Counted from the stretch's first letter, positions 3,189 to 54,118 are shown. The stretch: DNA of 64,000 nucleotides from Eubacteriales bacterium (GCA_031550535.1 JAVBOM010000083.1:1366-65365); one strand, 5' to 3'. Notes: a model not told the origin generated them from the sequence alone. A program made the numbers and translations.

Positions 3189-3252
3189 GATGGCGGCGCT
3201 GATTTGCAACATCGGGCGCCGTAGGCGAATTCCGCCAGGAATCCTTACCTCT
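3189..3252 (-). repeat. R63 repeat copy in the leader region of the MATE gene
   Basis: gatggcggcgctgatttgcaacatcgggcgccgtaggcgaattccgccaggaatccttacctct. Confidence 0.9.
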
Positions 3253-3314
3253 ATGTGTAAACCGCCGTCATTGTACAGCGGGGGGCGCGAAAAAACAAGG
3301 AATATATGTGGGAT

Positions 3315-3352
3315 GTAAAAAAAGCAAACCCCCTCCGGCGCGGCCGGAGGGG
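3315..3352 (-). terminator. rho-independent terminator
   Basis: Minus strand reads CCCCTCCGG-CCGCG-CCGGAGGGGG followed by TTTGCTTTTTTT. Confidence 0.7.
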
Positions 3353-3418
3353 TATATGAATTTCACTCGCTATCCTCTTTCGCATGAGTTCGTGTGTACG
3401 GTCTACTGGTTGTATGGC

Positions 3419-3520
3419 TTACTGGCCCGTCTGGCCCGATTGGCTTGTCCGATCCCGGCGCATCCCTCCTTGCTCCTTACTTGCCCTGCTTGGCCCTTGC
3501 CCGGCGGCCGCGTCGTCCAT
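3419..3520 (-). CDS. possible 33-aa small protein (MDDAAAGQGPSRASKEQGGMRRDRTSQSGQTGQ), unannotated
   Basis: ATG preceded by AAGAGGTGAT, TAA stop, and the terminator at 3315-3352 lies about 70 nt downstream. G/Q/S/R-rich composition. Below the ORF-track size cutoff. Confidence 0.25.
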   Translation of the reverse strand: MDDAAAGQGPSRASKEQGGMRRDRTSQSGQTGQ

Positions 3521-3632
3521 CGGCATCACCTCTTTCGCTTTTGATGTCATTATCATACCGCCCTTTTATGAACCCAATATGATGCGTTCATGAGAATTCC
3601 GTTAACATTTCCGCCCTTATCGCGCCCCGCCC

Positions 3633-4697
3633 TCACTTTGGCCGGGGCTCAAACTCCACCATCTTGGGCGAAATATACGCCAGCCCGCCCCCGGGCAGTT
3701 CAAAGCCATACCATCCAGAGGGCGACATTCCGAGGGCGAAGAAGGCATCGCCCTGATGCACTTTGCCGATCGCCTTGTAGTCCGTGCTGCCGCCCTCGCG
3801 GACATTGGTGCCGCTGGAAAGCACGACAATCCTGCCGATGGCGTTCTCCGGCCACACAATCGGATCGGGTATGACAATGATGTTCTGCAGGGCGACCTCG
3901 TCCGGGGTCAGGTTGACATCGCGCAGGAGCGCCTCTTTCGTGATCGTGATTGTGCGTTTCCGCGAGGTTTTGACATTTTCCTTAAGCGCAACGGTGACAG
4001 ACTCCCCGATGGCAAGTTTCCTCAGGTTTTTTTCGCATTCAAACAGCTGGTAATAACCCGGTCCGGTGAACTCGGCAAACGGCGTGAGAGTAAACTGCAC
4101 ATAGTCCCCGCCGACGAGGTACACGCTATCCGCATCGTCTAACCCTTCCTGCATCCCCCCTCCGCCCGTGAGTTGCAGTTCCTGAATGTACATGTGATAG
4201 CTGGTGTTGAAATCCCCTCGGGTTGGGTCAAGGATGATCGAACTGATGCTTCTGATGGAACCCTCCTCCATGCCGTTCGTCTGTAGACGGTACAGATACA
4301 GCCGCTGCGGGATGGACTGATACCCGTTGGAAACTGAAGAATACTTTCGCATCCTGTCCGCCGCGTTCCATCCCCCCGTTATTCTGAATTCAACCTGATC
4401 ATACGTTTGATCGTCCGGTGCGCTATCCATATGGATGTCTACGCCCACCACCCCCACAGGGGTAGGAACGATCGTATACTCGTGCGGCTTCAACCTGTAC
4501 TGGTGCGCAAGGTGCAGTATGCCGTCGTCACGCTCTTCAAACCCATTTATTTCGACGATTGCGGACTCCAGCTCCGTGCCAACTTCGTTAAAATAGAGAA
4601 TGCCCTCCGACACCGTGGCATATGGATTCTCCCCCAAGCCAACGGCGGGCAGCAAACCCATGACCAATACGAGCATCGCCAAGAGCTTCCTTTTCAT
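3633..4697 (-). CDS. secreted hypothetical protein with a C-terminal SH3b-like domain
   Basis: Signal peptide MKRKLLAMLVLVMGLLPAVGLG. C-terminus GTNVREGGSTDYKAIGKVHQGDAFFALGMSPSGWYGF resembles bacterial SH3. Confidence 0.65.
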   Translation of the reverse strand: MKRKLLAMLVLVMGLLPAVGLGENPYATVSEGILYFNEVGTELESAIVEINGFEERDDGILHLAHQYRLKPHEYTIVPTPVGVVGVDIHMDSAPDDQTYDQVEFRITGGWNAADRMRKYSSVSNGYQSIPQRLYLYRLQTNGMEEGSIRSISSIILDPTRGDFNTSYHMYIQELQLTGGGGMQEGLDDADSVYLVGGDYVQFTLTPFAEFTGPGYYQLFECEKNLRKLAIGESVTVALKENVKTSRKRTITITKEALLRDVNLTPDEVALQNIIVIPDPIVWPENAIGRIVVLSSGTNVREGGSTDYKAIGKVHQGDAFFALGMSPSGWYGFELPGGGLAYISPKMVEFEPRPK

Positions 4698-4920: not shown

Positions 4921-5853
4921 ATGTACATCGTGGATACCCACTGCGATACGCTGCTGGCCCGCTCGGCCCCCGTCAACGAGTTTAGCAAGAGCGCCACGCC
5001 CGATGTCACGCCTGAACGCCTTCGGGACGGCGGCGTGACATTGCAGGTGTGCGCCCTGTTCGCCGGATCGGACGGGCCGAAGGGCATGGGGCCGCGCGCG
5101 CCGCGCGCCATGGCGGACGCGCAGTTCGCGGCGCTTCACACGCTCACGGACCACGGCGTGCGCAAGGTGGACAGCCCGTTTGACGCTAAGGACGGCGAAA
5201 CCTGCCTGATGCTGTCCATCGAGGGCGGCGAGATCATCGGCGATTCGCTGGAAACGCTGCGGGATTACCGAAAGCTCGGCGTCCGGCTGATGGCGCTCAC
5301 CTGGAACCACGAAAACCTGATCGCCTATCCGCACTGCGACGGCGGTCAGCACGGCCTGAAGCCCTTCGGCTGGGAGGTCGTGCGCGAAATGAACCGCCTG
5401 GGCATCGCGGCGGACGTTTCGCACCTGGGCGAGGGCGGGTTCTGGGACCTCGTGTTCCATAGCGACAAGCCGCCCATGGCCTCGCACTCCTGCTGCCGCA
5501 AGCTCTGCATGCACACGCGGAACCTCACGGACGACCAGATCCGCGCCCTGATCGACCGGGACGGCTGGATCGGCATCAACTTCTATACGAACTTCCTGTC
5601 CGGCACCGGCCATGCGGACGTGGAGACGGTGGTGGACCACATCCAGCATATCGCGGAGCTGGGCGGCGTGGAGCACGTCGGCTTCGGCTCGGACTTTGAC
5701 GGCATCGACAAGGCGCCCGAGGGGCTGACGCACCCGGGACAAATTCCGAACCTGCTGGCCGCGCTGAGCCGCCGGGGCTTTTCCGCCCAGGAGGTCGAGG
5801 GCATTGCCGGACAGAACTTCCTGCGCTACATGAGACAGTTTGAGGAGGCGTAA
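4921..5853 (+). CDS. membrane dipeptidase (peptidase M19 family)
   Basis: [11 protein letters not shown] start motif, plus HLGEGGFWD and GFGSDFDG metal-ligand motifs. AGGAGG lies 8 nt upstream of ATG 4921. Confidence 0.85.
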
Positions 5854-5857
5854 CACC

Positions 5858-7525
5858 ATGGCCAAGTATGCGATCGGCGTGGACTTTGGCACGCTGTCGG
5901 CGCGCGCGCTCGTCGTGGAGATCGGCACCGGGCGCGAGCTGGCGGCCCGGGCGATGGACTATCCGCACGCCGTGATGGACGAAGCGCTGCCGGACGGCAC
6001 GCGCCTTGGCACGGACTGGGCGCTGGAGCATCCCCGGGATTATCTGGACTGCCTGGCCGGCACGATTCCCGGGGCCATGGCGGACAGCGGCGTGGACCCG
6101 AAGGATGTCGTGGGCCTGGGGATCGATTTCACGGCCTGCACGCTGATGCCCTGCAAGGCGGACGGCACGCCGCTGTGCTTCCTGCCGGACTTCGAGCACA
6201 ACCCGCACGCGTACATCAAGCTCTGGAAGCATCACGCCGCGCAGGACCACGCCGACCGGCTGAACGCCATTGCCGGGGCGCGCGGGGAAACGTTCCTGAA
6301 CCGCTACGGCGGCAAAATATCGTCCGAATGGGCCATTCCGAAAATCTGGCAGACATTGGAACAAGCGCCCGAGGTGTACGCCGCCGCCGACCGCTTCATT
6401 GAGGCGGCCGACTGGGTCATCTGGCAGCTCTGCGGCCGCGAGGCGCGCAACGCGTGCACGGCCGGGTACAAGGCCATGTGGTCCAAGCGCGAGGGGTATC
6501 CTTCGGAGGACTTCTTCGCCGCGCTGGACCCGCGCCTGCGCCGTGTCGTGGAGGAGAAGCTCTCCCGCGACATCTACCCCATCGGCGCGAAGGCGGGCGA
6601 GATCACGGCAGAGGCGGCGAAGCTCACGGGCCTGCCGGTGGGCACGGCGGTGGCCGTCGCGAACGTGGACGCGCACGTCGCCATGCCGGCGCTCGGCATC
6701 ACGGACCCGGGCAAGCTGCTGATGATTATGGGCACATCCACGTGCCACATCGTGCTGGGGCGCGAGGAAAAGCTGGTGCCCGGCATGTGCGGCGTGGTGG
6801 AGGACGGCGTCATCCCTGGGTACATGGGCTTTGAGGCGGGCCAGAGCTGCGTGGGCGACCACTTCGCCTGGTTTGTGGAGAACTGCGTGCCCGAGCGGTA
6901 TATGACCGAGGCGCGCGAGCGCGGGCTGCACATCCAGCAGCTTTTGACCGAGAAAGCGGCGAAGCTGGCCGTCGGCGAAAGCGGGCTGCTGGCGCTGGAT
7001 TGGTGGAACGGCAACCGTTCCGTGCTGGTGGATGCGAACCTGACCGGCGTGATGCTCGGCATGACACTGCAAACCAAGCCCGAGGACATGTATCGCGCGC
7101 TGATCGAGGCGACGGCCTACGGCACCCGGATGATCGTGGACACGTTCGCGGAAAACGGCGTCGCCATCGACGAATTGTACGCGTGCGGCGGCATCGCGGA
7201 GAAAAACCCGATGATGATGCAGATCTACAGCGATGTGGTGAACCGCGAAATCTTCATCTCCCGCTCCGCGCAGGCCCCGGCGCTGGGCAGCGCGATGTTC
7301 GGCGCGGTCGCGGCCGGGAAAGCGAACGGCGGCTATGACACCATCCAGGGCGCGGCAAGGGAGATGGGCGGCGTGAAGGACACCGTGTACCGGCCCATCC
7401 CGGAGAATGTGGCCGTGTATGACCGCCTGTTCGCCGAGTACCGCCGCCTGCACGACCTGTTCGGGCGCGGCGGGGATAACGCGCTGAAAACGCTGAAGAA
7501 GATCAGGCAGGAGGCGCAGAAGTAG
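5858..7525 (+). CDS. araB: L-ribulokinase
   Basis: From memory, close full-length resemblance to Bacillus AraB ([53 protein letters not shown]). GAGGAGG RBS. The TAG stop at 7523-7525 lies inside an R63 copy. Confidence 0.9.
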
Positions 7526-7581
7526 GGATTCCTGCCGGAATCCCCTTATGGCGCCCGATTCTTCGAATCAGCGCCGCCATC
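7519..7581 (+). repeat. R63 repeat copy overlapping the araB stop codon
   Basis: gaagtagggattcctgccggaatccccttatggcgcccgattcttcgaatcagcgccgccatc. Confidence 0.95.
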
Positions 7582-7665
7582 ATAGAGGCATTAACAATGC
7601 CCGCACGGCAGATTTTTCTGTCCTGCGGGCATTCTTGTTGTATGGCAGCGCAAACCGGATGCTGC

Positions 7666-8331
7666 TTATGGGAGGGAAGGCACGATATTCACGGACAGCA
7701 CGGCTTCCGTTTTCCCGTTTATTTCGACGCGCTGAATGATAAGCAATGTTGTCTCCGTGCCCACAGTGGACACCCAGCGCCGCATATGCCTGCCCGTGAC
7801 GACGGCAAGGGCCCCTCCCCCCGGCAAGGATATTGTGTCGGCAATGTCGTCCTCGTCAACCCGGGCGTCCGGTTCGCCGTACAGTTCGGTCAAAGCGTCG
7901 GCCAGCGTATCGTATAGCACGGCGAGATTGCCCTGCTCCCCATTGAAACTATAGTGCACCGACGAAAGCCCATCGTCTATGAATTCAATCGATGTGGAAG
8001 CAGTATAACCGTTCAGCCGGGCGCTGTTCTTGAAATTGTAGTCGCAGAATTCTTGGGACACGGAAGTCAGCTTCATCGCGTCCGCGAAATCAATGCCCAG
8101 TGCGTTCTCCACCTCTTCCGGCGAGGAACCCCAGGCGATTCCGTGGTACGCGTAGTCGCCATCCTCATTTCGCAATGTCGTAAGGTCGATTTCGTCCGTC
8201 CCATCGAAAGCGGTAAACAACCCCGTCAGCACAAGAAGCAACCCGATCCATGCGCACTTCCTTGACGGCGGCGCTGATTTGAAACATCGGGCGCCATAAA
8301 AGGATTTCGCAAGAAATCCATTCCTCTTCAT
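7666..8331 (-). CDS. hypothetical exported protein whose N-terminal codons 2-23 are an R63 copy
   Basis: ATG 8331 is preceded by AGGGAGGGTG. A hydrophobic segment WIGLLLVLTGLFTAF follows the repeat-encoded stretch. Confidence 0.55.
   Translation of the reverse strand: MKRNGFLAKSFYGARCFKSAPPSRKCAWIGLLLVLTGLFTAFDGTDEIDLTTLRNEDGDYAYHGIAWGSSPEEVENALGIDFADAMKLTSVSQEFCDYNFKNSARLNGYTASTSIEFIDDGLSSVHYSFNGEQGNLAVLYDTLADALTELYGEPDARVDEDDIADTISLPGGGALAVVTGRHMRRWVSTVGTETTLLIIQRVEINGKTEAVLSVNIVPSLP
8264..8328 (-). repeat. R63 repeat copy inside the 5' coding region of ORF 7666..8331
   Basis: gacggcggcgctgatttgaaacatcgggcgccataaaaggatttcgcaagaaatccattcctctt. The consensus TAG position reads AAT in this copy, which keeps the frame open. 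Confidence 0.85.
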
Positions 8332-8471
8332 TGCGGATCACCCTCCCTAAACACCGCTCCTTCCGTCCTTATCGCCCAATCTTCTATTGTTATTTTATGC
8401 CATTTCCCACAATTTGTCAACCGTACGCATCGCCATTTGGGCAAAAACTCGCGCCGCCTTCAAAGGCATAC

Positions 8472-9452
8472 TTACAGCATTCCCCGCAGCTTTCCAATAT
8501 CCCTGTCCGTGCGGTTGCCATGGATGGGGATATTCGCCAACTCCGCCTCAATCTGCGCATATTCGCCCGCCGTCAGCATGACGTCCGCCGCGCCAAGGTT
8601 CTCCTCAATCCGCTGAACGCTCCGCATGCCGGGAATCGGCACGATGAAATCCCGCTTGCGCAGCATCCATGCGAGGGAAATCTGCGCGGGCGTGCTCCCT
8701 TTGCTTGCCGCGAACGCGCGGAGCATATCCAGCAGCGGCTGGTTCGCGCGGAAGTTGTCCTCGCTGAAGCGGGTGATGACCCGCCGCACGTCGTCGCCGG
8801 TGTAGCCGCTCCCGGCCGTCGTTTTGCCGGACAGGAACCCGCTGGCCAGCGGCGAAAACGGCACGAACCCGATCCCCAGCGCCTCGCACGCCGGGAGGAC
8901 ATCCTTCTCAAACATCCGCTCCATCATCGAGTACTCGCTCTGGATGGCGGCAATCGGCGTGACAGCGTGCGCCCGCTGGATCTCGTCCTCCGTTGCCTGG
9001 GACTGTCCCCAGCCGAGGATTTTGCCCTCCCGGATTAACTCCCCCATCACCCGCGCCACGTCCTCCACCGGGATGTCCTTGTTGACCCTGTGCTGGTAAT
9101 ACAAGTCGACATGATCCATCGAAAGCCGCCCGAGTGACGCGTCCAGGTGCGCGCGGATGCTCCGCCGGAGCCGCTCAAACGTCCCCGCCTCAGCCAGCGT
9201 GTCAATGTGCAGCTTCGTCGCGACGACAACCCGATTCCGGATCGGCCCGAGCGCCTCGCCGACCAGCTTTTCGTTGTCGCCCGCGCCATAGCCTTCCGCC
9301 GTGTCGAAAAAGGTACACCCCAGGTCAAACGCCCGGCGCATCAGCCGGATCGCCTCCGCCCGGTCCGGTCCGGGCCCGTATCCGTGGCTGAACCCCATGC
9401 AGCCAAAGCCGACGGCGGATACCGTCAGACCGCCAAGCCTGCGCATTTTCAT
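8472..9452 (-). CDS. aldo/keto reductase
   Basis: 326 aa. GFGCMGFS, FFDTAEGYG and LGWGQS family motifs. GAAGGAAG RBS. Confidence 0.85.
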   Translation of the reverse strand: MKMRRLGGLTVSAVGFGCMGFSHGYGPGPDRAEAIRLMRRAFDLGCTFFDTAEGYGAGDNEKLVGEALGPIRNRVVVATKLHIDTLAEAGTFERLRRSIRAHLDASLGRLSMDHVDLYYQHRVNKDIPVEDVARVMGELIREGKILGWGQSQATEDEIQRAHAVTPIAAIQSEYSMMERMFEKDVLPACEALGIGFVPFSPLASGFLSGKTTAGSGYTGDDVRRVITRFSEDNFRANQPLLDMLRAFAASKGSTPAQISLAWMLRKRDFIVPIPGMRSVQRIEENLGAADVMLTAGEYAQIEAELANIPIHGNRTDRDIGKLRGML

Positions 9453-9484
9453 GCCGCGTCACTTCCTTCGTATGTCTTGCCTCC

Positions 9485-9515
9485 AGTATACCTCCTGGAG
9501 TGAACTCGAAGTCAA
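9485..9515 (-). promoter_or_regulatory. sigma-A-like promoter of the aldo/keto reductase with a 19-bp spacer
   Basis: Minus strand reads TTGACT-N19-TATACT. Inverted repeat CTCCAG/CTGGAG at 9481-9500. A long spacer is typical of MerR-type activated promoters, but no MerR gene is adjacent. Confidence 0.35.
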
Positions 9516-9779
9516 GGTCACGCATCACTTGTTCTTCCCCGTCATAAACTTTTTCCCGCACATCATGTATTTTCGCTGGCGTAAACCCGCAAACTGTGGT
9601 ATGCTATGGGGGTTAAAGTATGATTTCCCGCGATTTTTGAATCCATCACGCGGCTGTGATGCCGCGTGTTTGATAGACTTCATAGGGAGCGTGCATCCAA
9701 AGGAGAACGGCGTTCGCCTTGCGTCGAGCGTTGTTTTTGCTTGTGATATTTTTGTTTTGGATTTGGAAGGAGGGTTTCT

Positions 9780-11527: not shown

Positions 11528-11875
11528 ATGAATGTCTATGACATCGCGCACGAGCTCGCGCGGGCCATCCGCGAGAGCGACGAAACGCGGGACGCCGCGC
11601 GCCTGAAGGAAATCGCCGAGGCGGACGACACAAACCGCGCGCTGCTGGCGGAATACAAGCGCCTGCAGACCGCGCTGCAGCTCCAGGCGATGGGCGGCCC
11701 GGCGGTCGGCGAAGACGACACGCGCAGATTTCAGCAAATCGCGTCCCTGCTCTACATGAACGGTGACGTGCAGGCATACCTGATGGCGGAAATGCGCGTG
11801 CAGAAGCTGCTGGCGGACGTGTTCAAAATCATTTCCGAAGCGGGCGGCATCAACATGGATATGCTGAACGTGTAG
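11528..11875 (+). CDS. YlbF/YmcA family regulatory protein
   Basis: 115-aa helical protein whose start (MNVYDIAHELARAIRESDE) resembles the YlbF family. GGAGGA RBS. Confidence 0.6.
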   Translation: MNVYDIAHELARAIRESDETRDAARLKEIAEADDTNRALLAEYKRLQTALQLQAMGGPAVGEDDTRRFQQIASLLYMNGDVQAYLMAEMRVQKLLADVFKIISEAGGINMDMLNV

Positions 11876-11883
11876 GCATAGCG

Positions 11884-11941
11884 GTGGGGTTTCTTGCGAA
11901 ATCCCTTTATGGCTCGGAATCTTCGGTTCCTCGCCGCCGCC
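11884..11941 (+). repeat. R63 repeat, divergent subfamily copy
   Basis: ggggtttcttgcgaaatccctttatggctcggaatcttcggttcctcgccgccgcc. The same variant core occurs at 33368-33410. Confidence 0.65.
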
Positions 11942-13174: not shown

Positions 13175-13864
13175 CTATAGCCCCTTCAGCCCTTTCTCCA
13201 GCATCTGCACGGCCTTCTTCTCCAGCCTGGAGACATAGGACCTGGAGATGCCCAGCAGCGACGCGATCTCGTACTGCGGCCGCTGCCTGCCGTCGATCAG
13301 CCCGTACCGGAGCTCCAGCACCGTGCGCTCCCGTTCGGGAAGTATCTCGCGGATCAGCCGTTCGATCCGGTGCAGGTTGATGCGGCGGTCCACCTCGTCG
13401 GTCACGGCGTCCGGCTCCGTTCCCAGCACGTCTATGTACGCGATTTCGTTGCCGTCGGTGTCCTTGCCCACGGCGTCGTTGAGCGATACGTCGTTCTTGC
13501 GCTTCTGGGACGCGCGCAGGCACATCAGGATCTCATTTTCGATACAGCGGCTGGCGTAGGTGGAGAGCGTCGCGCCGCTGTCGGGCTTGAACGTGCCCAC
13601 CGCCTTGATCAGCCCGATGGTGCCAATGGAGATCAGATCGTCGGAGTCATAGCCGGGCACGGTGTACTTGCGCGCGATGTGCGCGACGAGGCGAAGGTTA
13701 TGCTCGATGAGCTTTCTGCGCGCGGCGTCATCGCCTTCCTTCATGCGGCGGATGCACGCTCGCTCCTCCACGGGCGACAGCGGTTTGGGAAAGGCCGATC
13801 GGCTGGACACATAGCCAAAAAAGAACAGGGCATCCTTCAGCAGGAGCAACAGAGCGGTCAGCAT
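13175..13864 (-). CDS. sigK: sporulation sigma factor SigK (pro-sigma-K), uninterrupted
   Basis: Pro-sequence and region 2 resemble B. subtilis SigK (KDALFFFGYVSSRSAFPKPLS, IEHNLRLVAHIARKY, DLISIGTIGLIKAV, CIENEILM, ISRSYVSRLEKKA). Confidence 0.85.
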   Translation of the reverse strand: MLTALLLLLKDALFFFGYVSSRSAFPKPLSPVEERACIRRMKEGDDAARRKLIEHNLRLVAHIARKYTVPGYDSDDLISIGTIGLIKAVGTFKPDSGATLSTYASRCIENEILMCLRASQKRKNDVSLNDAVGKDTDGNEIAYIDVLGTEPDAVTDEVDRRINLHRIERLIREILPERERTVLELRYGLIDGRQRPQYEIASLLGISRSYVSRLEKKAVQMLEKGLKGL

Positions 13865-13880
13865 ACGCCACCTCCTAGAT

Positions 13881-13940
13881 GACGGCGCGGATTGGAGAAA
13901 TCAGCGCCATAAAGGAATTCCGCGAGGAAACCTTACCTCG
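13881..13940 (-). repeat. R63 repeat copy (degenerate), upstream of sigK
   Basis: gacggcgcggattggagaaatcagcgccataaaggaattccgcgaggaaaccttacctcg. Confidence 0.75.
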
Positions 13941-14004
13941 TCAGCGGCGCTGATTCGAAGAATCGGGCGCCATGAGGGGGATCCCGCAAGGAAACCCTTC
14001 CGCT
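13941..14004 (-). repeat. R63 repeat copy in tandem with 13881-13940
   Basis: tcagcggcgctgattcgaagaatcgggcgccatgagggggatcccgcaaggaaacccttccgct. Confidence 0.85.
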
Positions 14005-14127: not shown

Positions 14128-14222
14128 TAAGGTAAGGATTCCTTGCGGAATCCTCTGATGGCGCCTGATTCTTCAAATCCTCGCCGCCGTCGCGGTACGG
14201 ATTCCTTTCAGAATCCCCTTCA
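14128..14222 (+). repeat. R63 repeat copy plus one extra hairpin-1 module, inverted relative to 13881-14004
   Basis: aaggtaaggattccttgcggaatcctctgatggcgcctgattcttcaaatcctcgccgccgtc, then acggattcctttcagaatcccc. Confidence 0.85.
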
Positions 14223-14257
14223 TAGCTCGCGACTTCCGGTTGCGCGCCGCCGTTTTG

Positions 14258-14747: not shown

Positions 14748-15932
14748 ATGGAAACGAAAAAAACTTCTCGCGCAAAAATTCTCGCGGTTACCCTCGCGGT
14801 GGCGCTGCTGGGCACATGCATCGGCCTTGCCGTCAGCGATAGCCTGCTTCACCCCCGCGCCGCCACGGCGGAAAGCCTGTCCGCGCTGGTCGCCCAGGCG
14901 TCCGTCGCCTCGGACCTGGACAGCCCGTTCAAGGCCGTCTACGCCGAGGCCAGCCAGTCCGTCGTCGGCATCAAGCTGACCTCGCAGCTACAGGTCCGCG
15001 ACGGTCGCATTCTCAACAACTCCTCGTTCGTCGGCTCCGGCGTTGTGATCAGCGCGGACGGCAGCGTCGTCACCAACTACCACGTCGTCACGGCCGGCGG
15101 CAGCAAGGTGGCCGAGGGCATTTCCGTCATCTACAACGACGAGGAATACACGGCCGAGTATGTCGCGGGCGATGCGGAGAGCGACATCGCGGTGCTCAAA
15201 GTGGACGGCCTGGACGCGCCGGCCGCCAAGATCGGCAATTCCGACGAGCTGTCCGTGGGTGACTGGGCGCTGGTCATCGGCACGCCGATTGACGAGAGCT
15301 TCTCCAACACGCTGACCGTCGGCGTCATCAGCGGCGTAAACCGCGACATGTCCGCCCTGGAGCGCAGCAGCAAGGCCACGTCTGTGGAGATGATCCAGAC
15401 CAGCGCGGCCATCAACAACGGCAACAGCGGCGGCGGCCTCTTCAACATCCGCGGCGAGCTGGTGGGCATCACGTCCATGAAGCTGTCCAGTTCCGGCTAT
15501 TCCAGCATGGCGAGCATTGAGGGCATGGGCCTGGCGATCCCGATCAACACGGTTTCCAAGATCGCGGATGACCTGATCGCGCACGGCTCCGTGCAGTACC
15601 CGCGCATGGGCGTTACCATCTCCGATCTGCCGAGCGACAGCGACGAGCCGACCAAGGACAGCCTGCCCAAGAGCATCTTGGTGCGCAGCGTTGAAAAGGG
15701 CTCCCCCGCCGAAGCGGCCGGCCTGCAGGTGGACGACCTGATCATGAAGGCCGACGGCAAGCGCGTCACCACCAGCACGGAGCTGCAGTCCATTCTCCGC
15801 TCGCACGCGATCGGCGAGACCATCGAGCTGGAAGTGTACCGCATCCCCGGCGTCCGCACCGTGAAGGCGGACGAACCGATTCCTGACGGCGAATACATCA
15901 CGCTGACGGTCGAGGTCAAGATCATCGACTGA
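14748..15932 (+). CDS. HtrA/DegP-type S1C serine protease with a PDZ domain
   Basis: N-terminal TM anchor. Catalytic motifs TNYHVV, DIAVLK and GNSGGGLF. C-terminal PDZ-like segment. Confidence 0.85.
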   Translation: METKKTSRAKILAVTLAVALLGTCIGLAVSDSLLHPRAATAESLSALVAQASVASDLDSPFKAVYAEASQSVVGIKLTSQLQVRDGRILNNSSFVGSGVVISADGSVVTNYHVVTAGGSKVAEGISVIYNDEEYTAEYVAGDAESDIAVLKVDGLDAPAAKIGNSDELSVGDWALVIGTPIDESFSNTLTVGVISGVNRDMSALERSSKATSVEMIQTSAAINNGNSGGGLFNIRGELVGITSMKLSSSGYSSMASIEGMGLAIPINTVSKIADDLIAHGSVQYPRMGVTISDLPSDSDEPTKDSLPKSILVRSVEKGSPAEAAGLQVDDLIMKADGKRVTTSTELQSILRSHAIGETIELEVYRIPGVRTVKADEPIPDGEYITLTVEVKIID

Positions 15933-16040: not shown

Positions 16041-16627
16041 TCAACAAATGTCAATCCAGTAGACTTGCTGCTCAATACCCTCAAACGTATTCTCGCAGGT
16101 CAAAATGCCGCCACAACCAACGGCGGTTTTAGGCGAAGGAAGATTATCCTTGTCGCATACAATCATCACTCTGGGGATGTTCAGCATACGCGCCTCATCC
16201 AGAACAAGCAAGAGCTGTTGTTTCCCATAGCCCTGTCGCCGCTCCGACGGGCGAACTCCATACCCGATATGCCCGCCATGCCGCTCCAGTTCGGGCGTTA
16301 GCGAATGGAGCAGCTGGACGCTCCCGATGATTTTTTGATCGGTTTTTCGGACGGAAAGAAGGTGCTTGCGTGCACACCGTTTCTCAGCGTCTCCTTTTCT
16401 ATTGAAAGGGCAACCGCAAGCCACGCGTTAAAATCAGCGGCACGGGCTAGGCCGCAGCTTCCGTGACGGCGGCGCTGATTCGAAGAATCGGGCGCCATGA
16501 GAGGATTCCGCCAGGAATCCTTACCTCTGATCGCGGTTTCGCCAACGTCAACGTATTCCTGTCTGTACTCCCAGATGGCTTCTTTCATCTCGGCAGAAGA
16601 CCATATGAGCGTTAAATCTTTCGCCAC
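16041..16627 (-). pseudogene. GNAT N-acetyltransferase disrupted by an in-frame R63 insertion and a frameshift
   Basis: The N-terminal part (16298..16627) and the C-terminal part (16041..16424; HIGYGVRPSERRQGYG, CDKDN) are in different frames. The switch is at the ttctttcc run near 16348-16355. 22 repeat-encoded codons (RGKDSWRNPLMAPDSSNQRRRH) sit between GETAI and GSCGLARAADF. Confidence 0.7.
16463..16528 (-). repeat. R63 repeat copy inserted in-frame (66 nt) in the GNAT gene
   Basis: gtgacggcggcgctgattcgaagaatcgggcgccatgagaggattccgccaggaatccttacctct. Confidence 0.9.
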
Positions 16628-33410: not shown

Positions 33411-33431
33411 CACTGAAAGAGAGGCCCCTAC

Positions 33432-37523: not shown

Positions 37524-37587
37524 AGAGGTAGAGATTTCTTGCGGAATCCCTTTATGGCGGTTGACTCTTCGAATCAGCACCGCCGTC
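37524..37587 (+). repeat. R63 repeat copy
   Basis: agaggtagagatttcttgcggaatccctttatggcggttgactcttcgaatcagcaccgccgtc. Confidence 0.85.
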
Positions 37588-40206: not shown

Positions 40207-40266
40207 GACGGCGGCGCTGATTCGGAGAATCGGACGCCACAAAGGGATTCCGCAAGGAATCCCTTT
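40207..40266 (-). repeat. R63 repeat copy
   Basis: gacggcggcgctgattcggagaatcggacgccacaaagggattccgcaaggaatcccttt. Confidence 0.9.
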
Positions 40267-40506
40267 TTCACTTGCGCCTCGGCGTAGTGCGCGTCGGTTA
40301 AATATTTGTTGATAACGGATTCGAGCTCATGATGCAATTATACATCCGGTGTATTCGTGCACTCGCCGTCTACAATCACGCCGCTGCGGCAAACAATCAT
40401 CATCCGCATAGAAACCGCTGATGTTGTGGCGCTTGCAATGCCGCTTCTTGATTTCGTTCGCCCGCTCAAGGGGAAGGTCATTGAGCGATGCAAAGGGGTC
40501 TTCACC

Positions 40507-42479: not shown

Positions 42480-42640
42480 GAGACGTTCTCCTCTTGAGTA
42501 ATTTTTATTCGTCATATGTGTATTTATATGCTACCAAGGTTTTCCATTTTTGTCAAGATCACAGGGTCGAAAAGTTTCAGAAAATACGCCGATTTTCGAT
42601 GACAAGGCGCAAAGTCTATGGTACAATGGCCGCGTTTACG

Positions 42641-42700
42641 GAAAGGATTCTTCGAGGAATTTCTCTTCGGCGCCCGATTTTTCAAATCCACGCCGCCGTG
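42641..42700 (+). repeat. R63 copy (diverged) in the 5' leader of the aminotransferase gene
   Basis: gaaaggattcttcgaggaatttctcttcggcgcccgatttttcaaatccacgccgccgtg. Lies between an ATGACA-N17-TACAAT promoter-like site (42599-42627) and the AAGGAGGGA RBS. Confidence 0.75.
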
Positions 42701-42722: not shown

Positions 42723-43910
42723 ATGCCGGCGTTAAGCCACCGTGTCAGCACTTTTACGGACTCCGTCATCCGCCGCATGACGCGCATCGCGGACGCGTGC
42801 GAGGGGACGATCAACCTATCGCAGGGGTTTCCGGACTTCGATCCGCCGGAGGCGCTGCTGAAAGCCCTGTCCAGGGCGGCCACCGAGGGACCGCATCAAT
42901 ATTCAGTCACATTCGGCGCGGAGAACTTCCGCCGCGCGCTCGCGGACAAGCAGGGCGCGGCGTACGGATACGAAATCGACCCGGAGACGGAGATCGTCGT
43001 CACCTGTGGCGGCACGGAAGCGATGATGGCCGCGATGATGACGATCTGCGATCCGGGCGACAAGGTGATCGTTTTTTCGCCCTTCTACGAAAACTACGGC
43101 GCGGACGCCATCCTGTCCGGCGCGACGCCCATCTTCGTGCCGCTCGCGCCGCCGGACTTCCAGTTCGACCCGAAGGTCCTGGAGGACGCGTTCCGCCAAG
43201 GGGTCAAAGCGATCATCGTCTGCAACCCGTCCAACCCGTGTGGCAAGGTGTTCACGGCGGACGAGCTCACGCTGATCGGCTCGCTGTGCCAGCGGTACGA
43301 CGCGTTTCTGATCACCGACGAGGTGTACGAGCACATCGTCTACGCGCCGCACCATCATACCTACGCCGCGACGCTGCCCGGTCTCCGGGACCGCGTGCTC
43401 TGCTGCTCGTCGCTGTCCAAGACGTATTCCATCACCGGCTGGCGGCTCGGCTACCTGATCGGCCCGGGGGACGTGATTGAATCCGCGAAAAAGGTGCACG
43501 ACTTTCTGACCGTCGGCGCGGCCGCGCCGCTGCAGGAGGCCGCCGTCGCGGGGCTTAGGCTCCCCCGTTCGTATTATGACGAGCTTGGCGCGCTGTACGC
43601 CAAGAAGCGCGCGCGCTTCCTCACCGGCCTCACGGATATCGGCCTGCCCCACACCGCGCCGGAGGGCACGTACTTCGTCCTAGCGGACATCAGCCGCTTC
43701 CTTCAAATGGAACAGTTCCAAGGCTACACCGATCTCGCGTTCTGCGAGTGGATGATCCGCGCGGTCGGTGTGGCGGCGGTGCCCGGCTCCAGCTTCTTCC
43801 GCGAGCCGGTGAACCACCTGATCCGTCTCCACTTTGCCCGGCGCGAGGACACGCTGGACGAGGCGATACGCCGCCTTGGCCGGCTGGAAAGGATGGCGAA
43901 GGCGCTATGA
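42723..43910 (+). CDS. class I/II PLP-dependent aminotransferase
   Basis: INLSQGFPDFDPP and CSSLSKTYSITGWRLGY (PLP lysine) motifs. Confidence 0.85.
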   Translation: MPALSHRVSTFTDSVIRRMTRIADACEGTINLSQGFPDFDPPEALLKALSRAATEGPHQYSVTFGAENFRRALADKQGAAYGYEIDPETEIVVTCGGTEAMMAAMMTICDPGDKVIVFSPFYENYGADAILSGATPIFVPLAPPDFQFDPKVLEDAFRQGVKAIIVCNPSNPCGKVFTADELTLIGSLCQRYDAFLITDEVYEHIVYAPHHHTYAATLPGLRDRVLCCSSLSKTYSITGWRLGYLIGPGDVIESAKKVHDFLTVGAAAPLQEAAVAGLRLPRSYYDELGALYAKKRARFLTGLTDIGLPHTAPEGTYFVLADISRFLQMEQFQGYTDLAFCEWMIRAVGVAAVPGSSFFREPVNHLIRLHFARREDTLDEAIRRLGRLERMAKAL

Positions 43911-45055: not shown

Positions 45056-45182
45056 GGCGGCGGCGCTGATTTGAAAAATCGGGCGCCATAATGGGATTCC
45101 GCAAGGAATCCTTTCCTTAACGACGGCGCTGATTCGAAAAATCGGGCGCCATGAGAGGATTTCGCAAGAAGTCCTTACCTCT
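45054..45182 (-). repeat. two tandem R63 copies ending 3 nt from the stop codon of the minus-strand gene
   Basis: gtggcggcggcgctgatttgaaaaatcgggcgccataatgggattccgcaaggaatcctttcctt, then aacgacggcgctgattcgaaaaatcgggcgccatgagaggatttcgcaagaagtccttacctct. Confidence 0.9.
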
Positions 45183-45184: not shown

Positions 45185-47002
45185 TCAGTTGATGGTCTCC
45201 CCGGTCAGGTTCTTCCAGGCTGCCCGGAGCGATTTTTGATTCGCGACGCCGTAGTTCGGGTCGTTCTTCGCGCACTCATCCATATCGCGCAGAAAGTGCA
45301 CGCACAGGTGGCCGTCAAAGTTGTTGTTCTCGATCTTTCCACTCAGGTGCGGCACGTTATGCATCGTCGCCATGGTCCAGGTGCCGCCCGGAAGCTGCAC
45401 GTACACAGGCTTGATGTCCCACTTTTTCATGTTACCAAACGCCGCGTTCATGTAGAGCGTGTCCTCCGCCGTCAGCGGCTCGCTGTCGCAGTGGTTGCCC
45501 AGCGAGAGGGATTTGAGCTTGTAGCCGTACCCTGTCGCGGGATCGTACACCTGCATGACGCCGCTGCCGGACCGCAGCGACGGCCTTACGGCGTTGAACC
45601 AGTGCAGGAGCTTGACCGACGACGCGGCCGGCCCGCTGATTTTCCCGGAGCCGCCCGTACCGGACGATCCGCCGGACGCAATCGGCGCGCCGTAAAGCGA
45701 GGTCAGCGTTGCGCTGCCCGCCACGCCATCGGCGTTCAGACGGTTCGCCCGCTGGAAGGCAATGACGGCCGCCTTGGTCGCGGTGCCATAGAACCCCGTG
45801 GCGTTCGCGGAAAGGTACCCCAGCGTTTTCAGCTTCTTCTGCATCGTTGTCACGGCGGCGGATTTCATGCCTTCCTTCAGCGTCGCGTATGTCGTGGTCC
45901 CGCCGGTCGTGCCCGATGCATTCGGTTTCGCGTTGCTGCTGTACAGCGTCATCTGCGTCGCCGAGCCGGCTACGCCGTCGGCGGTCAGGTTGTGCGCCCG
46001 TTGGAAGTCCTGTACGGCAAGCTGCGTCTGTGACCCGTAGAACCCCGTCGCGTTCGCGGTCATGTACCCCAGATCCTTCAGCGACTGCTGCAACGTCTTG
46101 ACCGCGTTGCTCGTCATGCCGCGCTTCAGCGTCGCGTATTCCGTGGCGCCTGTTGTGGACGACGGGACGCTGGCGGTGGTTCCGTCCGCAGCCTTCGCGC
46201 CGCCAGAGTACAGCAGGTTCTGCGTCACCGTGCCCGCCTTGCCGTCCGATGTAAGGCTGGATTTCTTCTGGAAGTCAACGACCGCCTTCTGCGTTGCCGC
46301 GCCGAAAATGCCGTCCGCTTTGCCGGACAGGTAGCCCAGCGCAACCAGCCGGTCCTGTAGCGATTTTACATCGTTCCCCCGGTCGCCCAGGCGCAGCGTC
46401 TTGGTCGAAGGCGTCCCGGCCGTGGATGACGTGCTAGGCGTGGTGTCCGCCGTCGTTGTGCCCGCCGTGGATGTGCCGGTGGTGGCCGCGGCCGTGCCGG
46501 TCGCGGCAATCGCGGTGTTGGCGTACATGATCCGCTGCGTCTCCCCGCCCGCGATCCCGTCCGCTTTGATTTTGTTTGATTTCTGAAAGCTCTTGACGGC
46601 TTCCACCGTCGATCTGCCAAACACGCCGTCCGCGCTGCCGGCCATGTAGCCCAGCTCGATCAGGCGCTTTTGCACATCCGCCACATAGGGGTTCTCGTCC
46701 CCCTCCTTCAGCGGATAGTAGCCGCTGCGGGTCAGCTCCATCAGGTAGGATGTGCTCGCGTACCCCGTATGGCCATTGTATGCTGTCTTTGTCCATCCGC
46801 CCGACGAACCCAGGATCGCAATCTCCGTGCCACCCGGGATCGTCACCAGGGTATCGCTCTTGGTGTTCGCCTCTTTGCGCAGGCGCAGATTGCACCGCGC
46901 CACGCGCGTCTGCGCCGCCACAGCCGGGAACACCGGCCACGCCGTCGCCACCATCATCGCCACCGCCAGCAAATACGCCCCCATGCACCTCGCCATACGC
47001 AT
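45185..47002 (-). CDS. secreted SH3b + 5x peptidoglycan-binding (PG_binding_1) protein with an uncharacterised His-rich C-terminal domain, paralog A
   Basis: Signal peptide, then an SH3-like segment (VARCNLRLRKEANTKSD...GWTKTAYNGHTGYAS). Five G-x-x-V-x-x-LQ-x-x-L-x-x-LGY...DG-x-FG units. C-terminal HNVPHLSG and NNFDGHLCVHF. Confidence 0.75.
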   Translation of the reverse strand: MRMARCMGAYLLAVAMMVATAWPVFPAVAAQTRVARCNLRLRKEANTKSDTLVTIPGGTEIAILGSSGGWTKTAYNGHTGYASTSYLMELTRSGYYPLKEGDENPYVADVQKRLIELGYMAGSADGVFGRSTVEAVKSFQKSNKIKADGIAGGETQRIMYANTAIAATGTAAATTGTSTAGTTTADTTPSTSSTAGTPSTKTLRLGDRGNDVKSLQDRLVALGYLSGKADGIFGAATQKAVVDFQKKSSLTSDGKAGTVTQNLLYSGGAKAADGTTASVPSSTTGATEYATLKRGMTSNAVKTLQQSLKDLGYMTANATGFYGSQTQLAVQDFQRAHNLTADGVAGSATQMTLYSSNAKPNASGTTGGTTTYATLKEGMKSAAVTTMQKKLKTLGYLSANATGFYGTATKAAVIAFQRANRLNADGVAGSATLTSLYGAPIASGGSSGTGGSGKISGPAASSVKLLHWFNAVRPSLRSGSGVMQVYDPATGYGYKLKSLSLGNHCDSEPLTAEDTLYMNAAFGNMKKWDIKPVYVQLPGGTWTMATMHNVPHLSGKIENNNFDGHLCVHFLRDMDECAKNDPNYGVANQKSLRAAWKNLTGETIN

Positions 47003-47164
47003 ACACACACAACCTCCCCGATTTGGGATAGGGTTATTATACGGGTAATTGTGTCGTGCGTCAACCAATTTGTAACATTTTTTACTTATTTTGTTAATTT
47101 ATCGAGATTTATCCGTCTTGTTTTCGTAATGTTATAGTATCCCCCCACCACACACAATCCTGCC

Positions 47165-51593: not shown

Positions 51594-52064
51594 ATGGATT
51601 TGGAAGCACGGCGCAAGAAGCGCAACTTCATCCTCTTTGGCGTTGTCGTTTATCTTTGCTGTATGGCGGTCGTCTCGAACCTTCTTCCGTCCGGAGATCG
51701 ATTGTCCGATGCGTACCTTGCCCGCATGATCGCGGCCACTCAGGCGCGGGACACTGCCGCCGCGTACGCGCTATTTGCGGATGGCGTGACGGATACAGCC
51801 GCACTATCGGACATGTTGCGTCGATACGCGGAAATATGGCCATATGGGGCGTATACGATTGCGTATCGCGGGTTGACGTGGGTCTTTGCGCCGGAAAAGT
51901 CCTATGGGAAGTGGTCGAGATCTCTTGAGGCAAACTACATACTCATGACTTGGCACGCAAGGATACGAAAGCAGGCATCCGTACAACTGAGGCGCTTGCG
52001 GGGCGAGCAAACGGACGGCGCGCTCCTTTCCTTTCAAATGGCCGGGGAGGAAACGGCGCAATAG
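51594..52064 (+). CDS. hypothetical membrane-anchored protein
   Basis: ATG 51594 follows GGGAGGTG. N-terminal TM helix NFILFGVVVYLCCMAVVSNLL. Confidence 0.5.
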   Translation: MDLEARRKKRNFILFGVVVYLCCMAVVSNLLPSGDRLSDAYLARMIAATQARDTAAAYALFADGVTDTAALSDMLRRYAEIWPYGAYTIAYRGLTWVFAPEKSYGKWSRSLEANYILMTWHARIRKQASVQLRRLRGEQTDGALLSFQMAGEETAQ

Positions 52065-52172
52065 CCGTCCCCCCCCCCGTCGTCCTCGTTGACATTTATC
52101 CCCAATGACAGTACAATGGAACACACAAATGCGCGCGCGGCCGCGCCGGGCGCGCACAAGGGGGAATATATA

Positions 52173-52622
52173 ATGAAGGTAATCCTGCTACAGGATGTGA
52201 AGGGAACCGGCAAAAAGGAGCAGATCGTCGAGGTCTCCGACGGCTACGCGCGCAACTTCCTGCTGCCGCGCAAGCTCGCGGCGGAAGCGACCAGCACGGC
52301 GATGAACGCCGTCCGCCGGGCCAAGTCCGCAGAGGATCACCGCGAGAGCCAGCGCCGCCAGGAGGCGGTGGAAACGGCCGAACGCCTTCGCCGCAAGGAG
52401 ATCCACCTCACCGCGCGCGCCGGCGAAAAGGGCCGTCTCTACGGCTCCATCACCGGCCAGGAAGTGGCCGACGCGCTGGAAACCCAGCACGGCATCAAGG
52501 TGGAGAAGCGCCGCGTGGAGCTTGCCGAGCCGATCCGCGCCGTGGGCGACTATGAAATCTCCGTATGGCTGTACGCGGGCGTTACCACGCCCATGCGCGT
52601 CGTGGTCACGGCGGACGCGTAA
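52173..52622 (+). CDS. rplI: 50S ribosomal protein L9
   Basis: MKVILLQDVKGTGKKEQIVEVSDGYARNFLLPRKLA. Confidence 0.95.
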   Translation: MKVILLQDVKGTGKKEQIVEVSDGYARNFLLPRKLAAEATSTAMNAVRRAKSAEDHRESQRRQEAVETAERLRRKEIHLTARAGEKGRLYGSITGQEVADALETQHGIKVEKRRVELAEPIRAVGDYEISVWLYAGVTTPMRVVVTADA

Positions 52623-53947
52623 TGCAGTCCGCCCCCCTCCCCCCCACCAACCAGGACGCCGAGCGCAGTGTGCTCGGCGCCATGCTGCAGGACCCTGAGG
52701 CCGTACTGCTCGCGCAGGAATTGCTGGCGGCGGAGGCCTTTTATCAGCCTGCCCACCGGGAAGTGTTCGACGCGATGATCGGCCTCGCGCGCCTGGGCAA
52801 GCCGGTCGACCTGATTACCGTGGACGAGGAACTGTCGCGGCGTGGCACGCTGGAAGGTATCGGCGGCACGGAATACCTCGTGCAGCTCACCCAATACGTG
52901 CCCACGACCGCCAACGTCCGCGCCTACATCGAAATCGTCGACGAGAAGCACACGCTCCGCCAACTGATCGACTGCGCGAACGGCATCCTCCGCGAGAGCT
53001 ACTCGCAGGACAAGCAGCTCGGCGAGCTACTCGGCCAGGCGGAAAAGGGCGTTTTTGACATCTCTATGCGCAAAAGCGGCGCGGACACCCTCGTGCACAT
53101 CCGCGACGTGCTCACGCAAACATACGCGCGCATTGAGGCGCTCTCCAAGCTGAAGGGCGCGATTGACGGCGTCGCGACCGGCTTTTCGGACCTGGACCGT
53201 TTGCTGACCGGCCTGCACGGTGGCGAGCTCGTGCTCGTCGGCGCGCGGCCGTCCATGGGCAAGACCGCCTTCGCCATCAACGTGGCGCAGACGGCCGCCC
53301 TTCGCGGCGGCAAGACGGTGGCCGTGTTTTCCCTGGAAATGCCGCGCGAGCAGATCGCCATGCGCATGCTGTGCACGGCGGCTAAGGTGGACATGCAGGC
53401 CGTTCGCCACGGCACCATCACGGACGACGACTGGATGAGCCTCACGACCGCGCTGGGCCCGCTTGCCGCGTCCAGCATGTACCTGGACGACACGCCGGGC
53501 ATCACCCCGTCCCAGCTTCGCTCCCGCTGCCGCCGCCTGATGGCGGAACGCGGGCTGGATATGATCGTCGTGGACTATTTGCAACTCATGGGCGCGGACC
53601 GGCGCAGCGACAACCGGCAGGTGGAGGTCGCGGAGCTGTCCCGCCAGCTAAAGGGCATCGCGCTGGAGCTGCACATTCCGCTGGTCGCCTGCGCGCAGCT
53701 TTCACGGGCCAACGCGCAGCGTTCGGACAAGCGCCCCATCCTCAGCGACTTGCGCGAATCCGGCTCCATTGAGCAGGACGCGGATGTCGTGATGTTCCTC
53801 CACCGCGAGGAATACTACAATCCGGACACGCCCGACAAAAACATCGCGGAGATCATCGTGCAAAAACAGCGGAACGGCCCGCTCGGCACGGTGAAGCTCG
53901 CGTGGCTCGGGCAATACACCGAGTTTCGCAACCTTTCCCCCGGGTAA
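52622..53947 (+). CDS. dnaB: replicative DNA helicase DnaB
   Basis: ERSVLGAML N-terminal domain, Walker A GARPSMGKTAF, and SLEM, QLSR, SGSIEQDADVV motifs. TAATG overlap with rplI. Confidence 0.95.
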   Translation: MQSAPLPPTNQDAERSVLGAMLQDPEAVLLAQELLAAEAFYQPAHREVFDAMIGLARLGKPVDLITVDEELSRRGTLEGIGGTEYLVQLTQYVPTTANVRAYIEIVDEKHTLRQLIDCANGILRESYSQDKQLGELLGQAEKGVFDISMRKSGADTLVHIRDVLTQTYARIEALSKLKGAIDGVATGFSDLDRLLTGLHGGELVLVGARPSMGKTAFAINVAQTAALRGGKTVAVFSLEMPREQIAMRMLCTAAKVDMQAVRHGTITDDDWMSLTTALGPLAASSMYLDDTPGITPSQLRSRCRRLMAERGLDMIVVDYLQLMGADRRSDNRQVEVAELSRQLKGIALELHIPLVACAQLSRANAQRSDKRPILSDLRESGSIEQDADVVMFLHREEYYNPDTPDKNIAEIIVQKQRNGPLGTVKLAWLGQYTEFRNLSPG

Positions 53948-54056
53948 ATTTCCACTCTTACCACTGTATATAGACCTTTCCCGCGCGGGTGTGGTATATA
54001 TTTGGTACTGGTCTTTTTGCAAAAAATCCTATATACTGTTGCTATGGTGAAATTCC

Positions 54057-54118
54057 GAGGTAGGGATTTCTGGCGAAATCCCCTTATGGCGCTCGATTTT
54101 TCAAATCTGCGCCGCCAT
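54057..54118 (+). repeat. R63 repeat copy overlapping the putative start of the caspase-like gene
   Basis: gaggtagggatttctggcgaaatccccttatggcgctcgatttttcaaatctgcgccgccat. Confidence 0.9.

Follow-up and report, generated by a model that had tools for sequence, protein, structure and literature searches.

Co-orientation of the 63-bp repeat R63 with genes in a Clostridia genome is moderate and best explained by flank-motif asymmetry plus reading-frame compatibility

A 64,000-nucleotide stretch of Eubacteriales bacterium DNA (GCA_031550535.1, JAVBOM010000083.1:1366-65365; hereafter the window, at its full length) carries repeated copies of a 63-bp element, R63, that tend to lie in the same orientation as the genes they adjoin, which raises the question of what sets this polarity. 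A strand bias of small bacterial repeats is often taken as a sign of RNA function, and a sequence-only reading of the window, which counted 15 of 16 informative copies as co-oriented, had proposed such a function, transcription-coupled insertion or strand-specific purifying selection. Across the source genome the co-orientation is real and moderate, is independent of replication and needs no RNA function. It is best explained, with moderate confidence, by an asymmetry of target and flanking motifs plus reading-frame compatibility, and the three causes named earlier fit less well.

R63 is a non-autonomous interspersed repeat, lineage-specific and recently expanded, with the 63-bp consensus GAGGTAGGGATTCCTTGCGGAATCCCCTTATGGCGCCCGATTTTTCAAATCAGCGCCGCCGTC. 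The source assembly is a metagenome-assembled genome (MAG) of 4.87 Mb in 105 contigs, with 62% G+C and 94% completeness, and an iterated nhmmer search of it returns 1,036 matches, 1,032 of them non-overlapping. This corresponds to ~212 copies/Mb, to 1.25% of the genome and to 8.6% of the DNA left non-coding by the open reading frame (ORF) caller; the head and tail words of the element are also far commoner in the window than in shuffled sequence. Each unit contains two hairpins (positions 7-26 and 32-57), and ~90% of stem cells are Watson-Crick pairs over all copies genome-wide. Among 19 window copies 94% of stem cells pair, above every shuffle, with compensatory changes at pair 13/20 (CG 11, UA 7) and pair 43/47 (CG 7, UA 6, GC 3). 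The tag at positions 4-7, which runs straight into an 8-bp stem with a 4-nt loop, is GTAG in 35% of copies, GTAA in 15% and mostly another GNRR in the rest, with G4 in 95%. The sense consensus has a single stop, the TAG at positions 5-7 (frame 2), and its other two frames are open for 21 codons each; on the antisense consensus every frame contains a stop, and the TTCGAA variant leaves one of them open.

Orientation was scored against genes from a purpose-made codon-usage ORF caller (3,844 genes, 85% coverage, start codons approximate). In co-directional gaps 401 copies are sense and 208 antisense (65.8%, p=4e-15), and the fraction is 67% both in gaps with a single copy (260:127) and in gaps whose flanking genes both score highly (314:157). 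Relative to the nearest gene, the bias is also present in convergent gaps (79:41, 66% sense) and divergent gaps (120:66, 65%). The genome-wide strand tabulation that the sequence-only reading had set as a test thus gives 66% sense rather than 50:50, and its claim of a near-constant co-orientation holds as to direction but not as to size, the ratio being ~2:1 and not 15:1.

R63 could conceivably be oriented to the replication fork, with gene co-orientation merely following from the placement of genes on the leading strand, and gene-strand bias is usually strong in Firmicute-type bacteria, of which the host is one. Local raw GC skew is mainly a coding-strand effect here, and coding and replication skew were separated by averaging the skew of plus- and minus-strand genes in 60-kb windows, which gives effects of ~0.049 for coding and ~0.025 for replication. 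Against the coding-corrected GC-skew proxy the copies split 463:458, and the sense bias, present for either gene strand, amounts to 61% where genes lie on the inferred leading strand and to 69-79% where they lie on the lagging strand, and is hence at least as strong there. These two observations reject a leading-strand artefact, leave orientation to the fork with a practically negligible probability, and show that the leading-strand gene bias earlier named as a possible sole cause does not account for the co-orientation.

The bias is instead concentrated at ORF boundaries. An upstream stop codon within -8 to +10 nt adjoins the R63 head 171 times and the tail 29 times, and a downstream start 10-25 nt away is faced by the tail 165 times and by the head 56 times, while the two orientations are balanced (129:130) at 10-100 nt beyond a stop codon. 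Within co-directional gaps the sense:antisense ratio is 63:9 where R63 fills the stop-to-start interval, 89:30 near a stop only, 88:51 near a start only and 161:118 near neither; by gap length, 71% of copies are sense in gaps below 300 nt and 56% in longer ones. Gaps with several copies are arranged as sense-sense (41) or sense-sense-sense (9), or as two (22) or three (5) antisense copies, as against 9 of mixed orientation, so that arrays are nearly all direct, with an exact 63-bp period. By gap type, 186 copies are divergent (1.42/kb), 609 co-directional (1.45/kb) and 120 convergent (0.96/kb).

The balance just past stops, together with the 56% in gaps of at least 300 nt, speaks against both a general RNA-level function and transcription-coupled insertion, each of which predicts a bias throughout the transcript. 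In the latter, R63 would integrate into the exposed non-template strand and take its polarity from transcription, which accords with a bias that follows the gene strand rather than the replication strand and that is stronger in short, probably co-transcribed gaps. The first 10-100 nt past stops are normally transcribed, however, the genome has no single-strand (Y1) transposase, and the position dependence is reproduced by motif availability alone, as described below; coupling to transcription is therefore very unlikely.

Directly 3′ of R63 follows a purine-rich heptamer similar to the first seven bases of the element itself. Its consensus at positions 64-70 is rAgGwAr, G67 being present in 71-73% of copies, in register with the GAGGTAG of the R63 head, and the motif is found in every context, whether the tail points toward a start, toward a distant start or toward a gene 3′ end (248 copies). 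The similarity exists at the consensus level only: at every offset, head and flank of a single copy are no more alike than shuffled pairs are, so this is not a classical target-site duplication.

The comparison of empty sites covers three of them, in relatives of only ~75-80% identity. At the 11886 copy the empty relative reads ...TTCGG-GAAAGGA-CTGCCG-GTG and the window ...GCGG-[element]-GAAAGGA-GCGCGCGC-GTG, the Shine-Dalgarno sequence GAAAGGA being already there in the relative. The 3189 site is empty in five same-genus genomes in which the Shine-Dalgarno GAAGGGGG pre-exists, and the window copy is located between a -10 box and this conserved motif. The site of a split copy at 35851 is empty in two same-genus genomes (G004 and G006), with the 3′ flank ATTGAAG pre-existing; the ATTGAAT of the window matches ATTGAAGC in G006. 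In two of the three cases the heptamer is the Shine-Dalgarno of the downstream gene, and the empty sites show the flank heptamer at all three to be host sequence older than R63. At gene ends, 61 copies supply the upstream gene's stop from positions 5-7 (TAG or TAA), and in these the in-frame flank codon at 68-70 is itself a stop in 25% of cases as compared with ~7% elsewhere, as expected if R63 landed before an AGG-TAR gene end and its head restored the stop.

Whether such a motif suffices for the bias was addressed by a census of matching heptamers, in both orientations, in 1,654 R63-free co-directional gaps and in the same zones as the real copies. The weight matrix was built only from tails facing gene 3′ ends, which avoids circularity with Shine-Dalgarno sequences. 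The sense fractions predicted from motif availability and observed for R63 are as follows:

Stop and start both near: predicted 0.95, observed 0.88
Near a stop only: predicted 0.88, observed 0.75
Near a start only: predicted 0.66, observed 0.63
Near neither: predicted 0.54, observed 0.58
Zone-weighted overall: predicted 0.68, observed 0.66

The size of the bias is thus quantitatively covered by the placement of the motif. A simpler heptamer census gives 60% sense at both thresholds used, which accounts for the finding that the sense fraction is flat with flank-motif score. The wider caution is that a local 15 of 16 shrinks to 2:1 genome-wide and is reproducible from the placement of a purine motif relative to genes; the flank motif also suggests a concrete handle on how R63 chooses its sites.

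Under the favoured explanation the heptamers would be Shine-Dalgarno sequences or AGG-TAR gene ends, which would be concentrated on the sense strand before starts and at or after stops. An element of fixed polarity meeting such a strand-asymmetric motif would come to lie co-oriented with genes, most strongly at tight junctions, and immediate selection for reading-frame compatibility would make a second, smaller contribution. The exact-period head-to-tail arrays are the outcome expected if R63 re-inserted before the head of an existing copy. From this pattern we infer a targeted insertion by some enzyme.

In the window, nhmmer places copies with starts at 1142, 3189, 7519, 8264, 11886, 13878, 13944, 14130, 14194, 16465, 20232, 34283/34346/34409, 37525, 40207, 42640, 45058/45120 and 54057, with fragments besides. 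With their context they are:

1142-1204, minus strand: R63 in a convergent gap (nhmmer E=5e-19), with overlapping partial matches at 1111-1166 (plus) and 1179-1233 (plus)
3189-3251, minus strand: sense R63, by nhmmer and gene context in the 5′ untranslated region (UTR) of the minus-strand gene 1807-3171; its 3′ end, 17 nt from the start, adjoins the Shine-Dalgarno GAAGGGGGG of that gene
7519-7581, plus strand: R63 in a convergent gap, its TAG (positions 5-7) being the stop of the plus-strand FGGY kinase gene 5840-7525
8264-8326, minus strand: sense R63 between the minus-strand genes 8472-9452 and 7666-~8260, with the longest ORF continuing through the copy
11880-11941, plus strand: divergent sense copy of R63, between the stop of the plus-strand gene 11528-11875 and the next gene's Shine-Dalgarno GAAAGGAG
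13878-14003, minus strand: two head-to-tail sense copies, the proximal one ending 13 nt from the start of the minus-strand gene 13175-13864
14129-14253, plus strand: two copies, one strong and one weak, both antisense to the minus-strand genes on either side
16465-16527, minus strand: sense R63 read in frame inside the minus-strand ORF 16298-16627
20232-20293, minus strand: R63 in a divergent gap, of ambiguous orientation relative to genes
33368-33413, plus strand: degenerate, truncated R63-like fragment of ~46 nt upstream of the cdaA Shine-Dalgarno, below the nhmmer threshold (E<1e-3)
34283-34471, plus strand: exact 3 x 63-bp array, head to tail, in the gap from cdaA to cdaR; cdaA stops at the TAG of the first unit
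35851-36061, plus strand: split long variant, sense, made of the R63 head, a ~144-bp CCTTCGG-rich insert in hairpin 1 and the R63 3′ half (36018-36051)
37525-37587, plus strand: R63 in a convergent gap, 52 nt past the stop of the plus-strand gene and 25 nt from that of the minus-strand gene
40207-40269, minus strand: R63 in a convergent gap, of ambiguous orientation relative to genes
42638-42700, plus strand: R63 in a divergent gap; its tail, which AAAGGAGG follows, is separated by 22 nt from the start of the plus-strand gene 42723-43910
45057-45181, minus strand: two head-to-tail copies in a convergent gap, the head 3 nt past the stop of the minus-strand gene 45185-47068
54057-54119, plus strand: sense R63 in frame 3, just past the conserved start of an FlgD_ig-domain gene

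Most of the positions given by the sequence-only reading are confirmed by nhmmer, with 33368 reduced to a degenerate fragment and 35851 to the head of a split variant. The copies set aside as ambiguous (1110, 20232, 40207 and 45054) do all lie in convergent or divergent gaps, and the region given as the single exception, 14128-14222, is indeed antisense and corresponds to the strong and the weak copy at 14129-14253. The count of 15 of 16 credited to a co-oriented neighbour four copies that lie in convergent or divergent gaps (7519, 16465, 37525 and 42640); with strict co-directional gaps only, the window gives 10:2 (83% sense), which does not exceed the genome rate significantly (p=0.17), whereas 15 of 16 would (p=0.012).

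The 54057 copy illustrates the relation of R63 to reading frames. Four codons separate it from a conserved start codon that congeners without the element share (alignment of four same-genus genomes), so that in the window the ATG, the four codons and R63 in frame 3 (21 codons) are followed by the conserved hydrophobic N-terminus; the element's own ATG at positions 30-32 is also in frame. In the four same-genus genomes the ATG stands just ~8 nt after a TATACT box (window 54044-54230), which suggests that this gene may be leaderless or have a very short leader. The 16465 copy belongs to a GNAT-like gene, 16041-16627 on the minus strand, that appears to be divided between overlapping ORFs of different frame, 16041-16424 and 16298-16627; the latter is the N-terminal part and the one in which the copy is read, and the split may reflect a pseudogene or an assembly frameshift.

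Copies that overlap gene ends number 61 in sense frame 2, 27 in sense frames 1 and 3 and 24 in antisense, where random insertion would give 1:2:3. Since these counts agree with the frame asymmetry of the consensus and with the in-frame copies at 54057 and 16465, frame compatibility is a probable further source of the bias. Copies show no trend in sense fraction from one divergence class to the next (0.70, 0.66, 0.67, 0.64, 0.68), and the bias was therefore present from the start, through insertion bias or immediate loss, and did not build up slowly; strand-specific purifying selection in its slow form is thereby disfavoured, since it should leave older copies more biased, while immediate selection for compatibility with frame and ribosome-binding site probably contributes, so that the third of the earlier proposals is right in part.

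Selection could also be the whole cause, with random insertion followed by the immediate loss of antisense copies near ORF ends, which bring stops in two or three frames and the anti-Shine-Dalgarno-like CCUACCUC beside the downstream ribosome-binding site, and with tolerance of sense copies, which bring an immediate TAG or an open frame. The asymmetry of frames can be read directly from the consensus, the bias peaks in the tight junctions that R63 fills, and both the gene-end overlaps and the 54057 copy, in frame after a conserved start codon, fit such a scheme. It leaves unexplained, however, the in-register flank heptamer in all contexts, the exact abutment to pre-existing Shine-Dalgarno sequences at empty sites and the exact-period direct arrays, and the census already covers the size of the bias, so that selection alone is rather unlikely.

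A function at the RNA level would mean that sense R63 stabilises mRNA, provides a processing site or punctuates operons, for example through an SD-like GAGG and a hairpin guarding against 5′-exonucleolytic decay by RNase J, and that it is kept by positive selection. The hairpins are indeed kept with compensatory changes, the R63 head is SD-like and RNase J is encoded in the window. G·U as opposed to A·C stem mismatches number 254:174 in sense and 113:122 in antisense copies (Fisher p=0.0056), but transcription-associated C>T mutation would lead to such a skew just as well. Furthermore, no bias is seen 10-100 nt past stops, where 3′-UTR elements would act, the bias does not grow with copy age, and antisense RNA folds at least as well: both orientations are predicted to form two hairpins, at -25.5 kcal/mol for sense and -29.1 kcal/mol for antisense. 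Hairpin stability as the cause of the sense preference is rejected, the antisense RNA being the more stable. Rfam contains no match to R63; the array region gives nothing below E=1, and the sole window match at the gathering threshold is a T-box leader.

The distribution of R63 among relatives bears on the same question. The host belongs to an uncultured high-G+C Clostridia lineage; the window encodes, besides RNase J and the T-box leader, CdaA and a YbbR-domain CdaR, and its RNase J shares 89% identity with the enzyme of a MAG labelled Eubacteriales and 74% with that of Candidatus Aphodomonas merdavium. A strict R63 core pattern, searched as an exact pattern, has no match among 185,579 species with one genome each. 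With the 63-bp consensus as query, 30 relatives yield R63 only in three same-genus MAGs (2, 14 and 3 matches), and in five of the seven same-genus genomes this search gives no more than 3 copies; G003, G004, G006 and G007 are free of R63 or nearly so. A longer query spanning several R63 copies gives 39 matches in G002 and 25 in G005, counts that include matches to flanking genes, and most of the repeat matches are partial or have 78-85% identity. None of the seven same-genus genomes has the array at the cdaA-cdaR junction, and an exact-protein look-up of one neighbouring gene for strain variants found nothing on record. The scarcity of R63 in most same-genus genomes and its absence at orthologous sites indicate a lineage-specific expansion, which, on this comparison of genomes, makes a conserved RNA role appear unlikely. 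Positive selection for an RNA function is accordingly a quite unlikely cause of the co-orientation.

Several points weigh against the favoured explanation by motif asymmetry and frame compatibility. The census overshoots near stops (0.88-0.95 predicted, 0.75-0.88 observed), where its geometry slightly favours sense in that antisense insertions inside gene ends are uncounted, and it leaves a residual bias near neither stop nor start (58%, where 54% is predicted). In principle the heptamer may belong to R63 itself, as a 3′ extension of low conservation, and not be a target. At the cdaA junction a head-like GAAGTAA pre-exists at the present position of the R63 head, so the assignment of one junction motif to the host may not hold for every copy. 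Gene and start calls are purpose-made, and the genome is a 105-contig MAG. No target-site duplication is detectable at any offset, and no transposase or recombinase partner was found among the candidates searched: the PF01797 (Y1/RAYT) profile, to which control genomes respond, has no match in the 94%-complete source MAG, an IS110 profile has none in the source genome, and a Y2 profile search gave no partner match, its control being silent too. Split R63 copies enclose no transposase-like gene; the ~2-kb split candidates enclose ordinary genes, ComM-like, glycyl-radical-like and for a membrane protein.

Tentatively, and with no great probability, R63 may be moved by machinery that is neither RAYT nor insertion sequence (IS), homing to heptamers that resemble both a ribosome-binding site and the element's own 5′ end, inserting directly upstream without target duplication and re-targeting its own head to form arrays. 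It would then be a Shine-Dalgarno-seeking mobile element colonising the operon junctions and 5′ UTRs of a Clostridia genome.

Among known repeat families, GTAG-tagged REPs are the closest match. A survey of these describes tagged hairpins with alternative complementary stem residues and intragenic copies, GTAG termini that often give a TAG stop to flanking ORFs, a tag more than 90% conserved in most families, and dimers that are rarely head-to-tail (HT) and usually HH or TT (Di Nocera, De Gregorio & Rocco 2013, PMC3733652). REPs prefer the 3′ sides of genes and are scarce between divergent ones. R63 shares the short G+C-rich hairpin after an unpaired GTAG-type tag, the hundreds of mostly intergenic copies with some within ORFs, the alternative complementary stem residues and the donation of TAG to ORFs. 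It differs in its more degenerate tag, its fixed two-hairpin 63-bp unit, its head-to-tail arrays in place of inverted HH/TT (REPIN-like) pairs, the absence of a RAYT (Y1) gene from its genome, and a lack of depletion in divergent (promoter) gaps (~1.4/kb as against 0.96/kb in convergent ones). Its host is a member of the Clostridia, and neither Firmicutes nor any name in Clostridi- is mentioned in the survey (PMC3733652).

The MIRU family (mycobacterial interspersed repetitive units) offers a second comparison. Passages on MIRU in a later review describe units of 40-100 bp that occur as direct tandem repeats in operon intergenic regions with polycistronic transcription, and that have open reading frames, ends overlapping adjacent genes, and empty and filled sites between relatives (Supply et al. 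1997 via Delihas 2011, PMC3184786). Set beside those passages, R63 is alike in its direct arrays in operon gaps, its period of 63 = 3x21, its two open sense frames and its 61 stop overlaps, and it differs in a co-orientation of only 66% overall (88% in tight junctions), a ~20-fold higher copy number and the lack of short direct repeats flanking it. The frame of R63 relative to the downstream start codon shows no preference (63:62:50), and the frame-3 mini-ORF from the internal ATG at positions 30-32 ends no closer to starts than a frame-1 control. MIRU-type translational coupling, or use of the R63 ATG as the downstream start, is thus unsupported.

Bacterial miniature elements (MITEs) such as Correia, ERIC/IRU, bcr1 and RUP are frequently co-transcribed with their neighbours and sometimes supply stops or in-frame segments (review: PMC3184786). 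R63 resembles them in being small, structured, non-autonomous and present in high copy number. It has no terminal inverted repeats, however, with the 5′ end GAGGTAGGG, the 3′ end GCCGCCGTC and the reverse complement of the latter GACGGCGGC, no target-site duplication, and no parent IS found with the same ends; judged by the first two of these features, it falls outside the MITEs.

Rickettsia palindromic elements (RPE), which are palindromic and tolerated in frame in protein genes, have candidate counterparts in the copies at 54057, 16465 and 8264. Most R63 copies are intergenic, unlike RPE, and these in-frame cases are candidates from the sequence only. Genome-wide, ~56 sense copies lie deep in called ORFs. 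A few with open frames, such as C82:24095-24156, C23:64341-64399 and C78:27871-27929, lie in very long ORFs (5,868, 1,251 and 994 aa for these examples) and may be RPE-like in-frame insertions, while most other intragenic calls, which fall within a few hundred nt of the called start, are probably start-codon overshoot.

R63 thus stands as an unusually abundant REP/MIRU-like family of an uncultured high-G+C Clostridia lineage, without a recognisable transposase. Given its presence in 5′ UTRs, in operon junctions such as cdaA-cdaR and in some reading frames, it probably influences how hundreds of genes are expressed, even should it be selfish.

Further observations concern individual copies and genomes. 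The long variant seen at 35851 recurs as a ~210-bp form in which the head and 3′ half of R63 are parted by a ~144-bp G+C-rich insert with CCTTCGG-like boxes, another copy lying at C53:47080-47273 of the source genome; the variant or its insert gives ~140 BLAST high-scoring segment pairs genome-wide, which points to a second repeat family nested in R63 hairpin 1. The T-box leader (31791-32045, minus strand, 95.8 bits) lies upstream of a gene for an ABC transporter substrate-binding protein (30749-31729, PF04392), with a weak R63-like match (32119-32202, minus strand) just upstream of the leader. In one same-genus genome, G001, contig C291 (L002, L006) carries two inverted R63 copies 2.2 kb apart (15544-15606, minus; 17781-17843, plus) that are 97% identical to the source consensus; the rest of that genome is without R63, and the contig may be mis-binned or the result of a recent transfer. 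The source genome measures 4.87 Mb as against 2.1-3.5 Mb for seven same-genus MAGs (84-95% complete), a gap of which R63 makes up just 61 kb. Finally, window positions 7516-9570 (~2 kb) correspond to only 225 bp in a syntenic relative (L007:2573-2797), an indel beside repeat copies; the segment contains the minus-strand genes 7666-8331 and 8472-9452, with one R63 at its left edge (7519, plus strand) and another within it (8264, minus strand).

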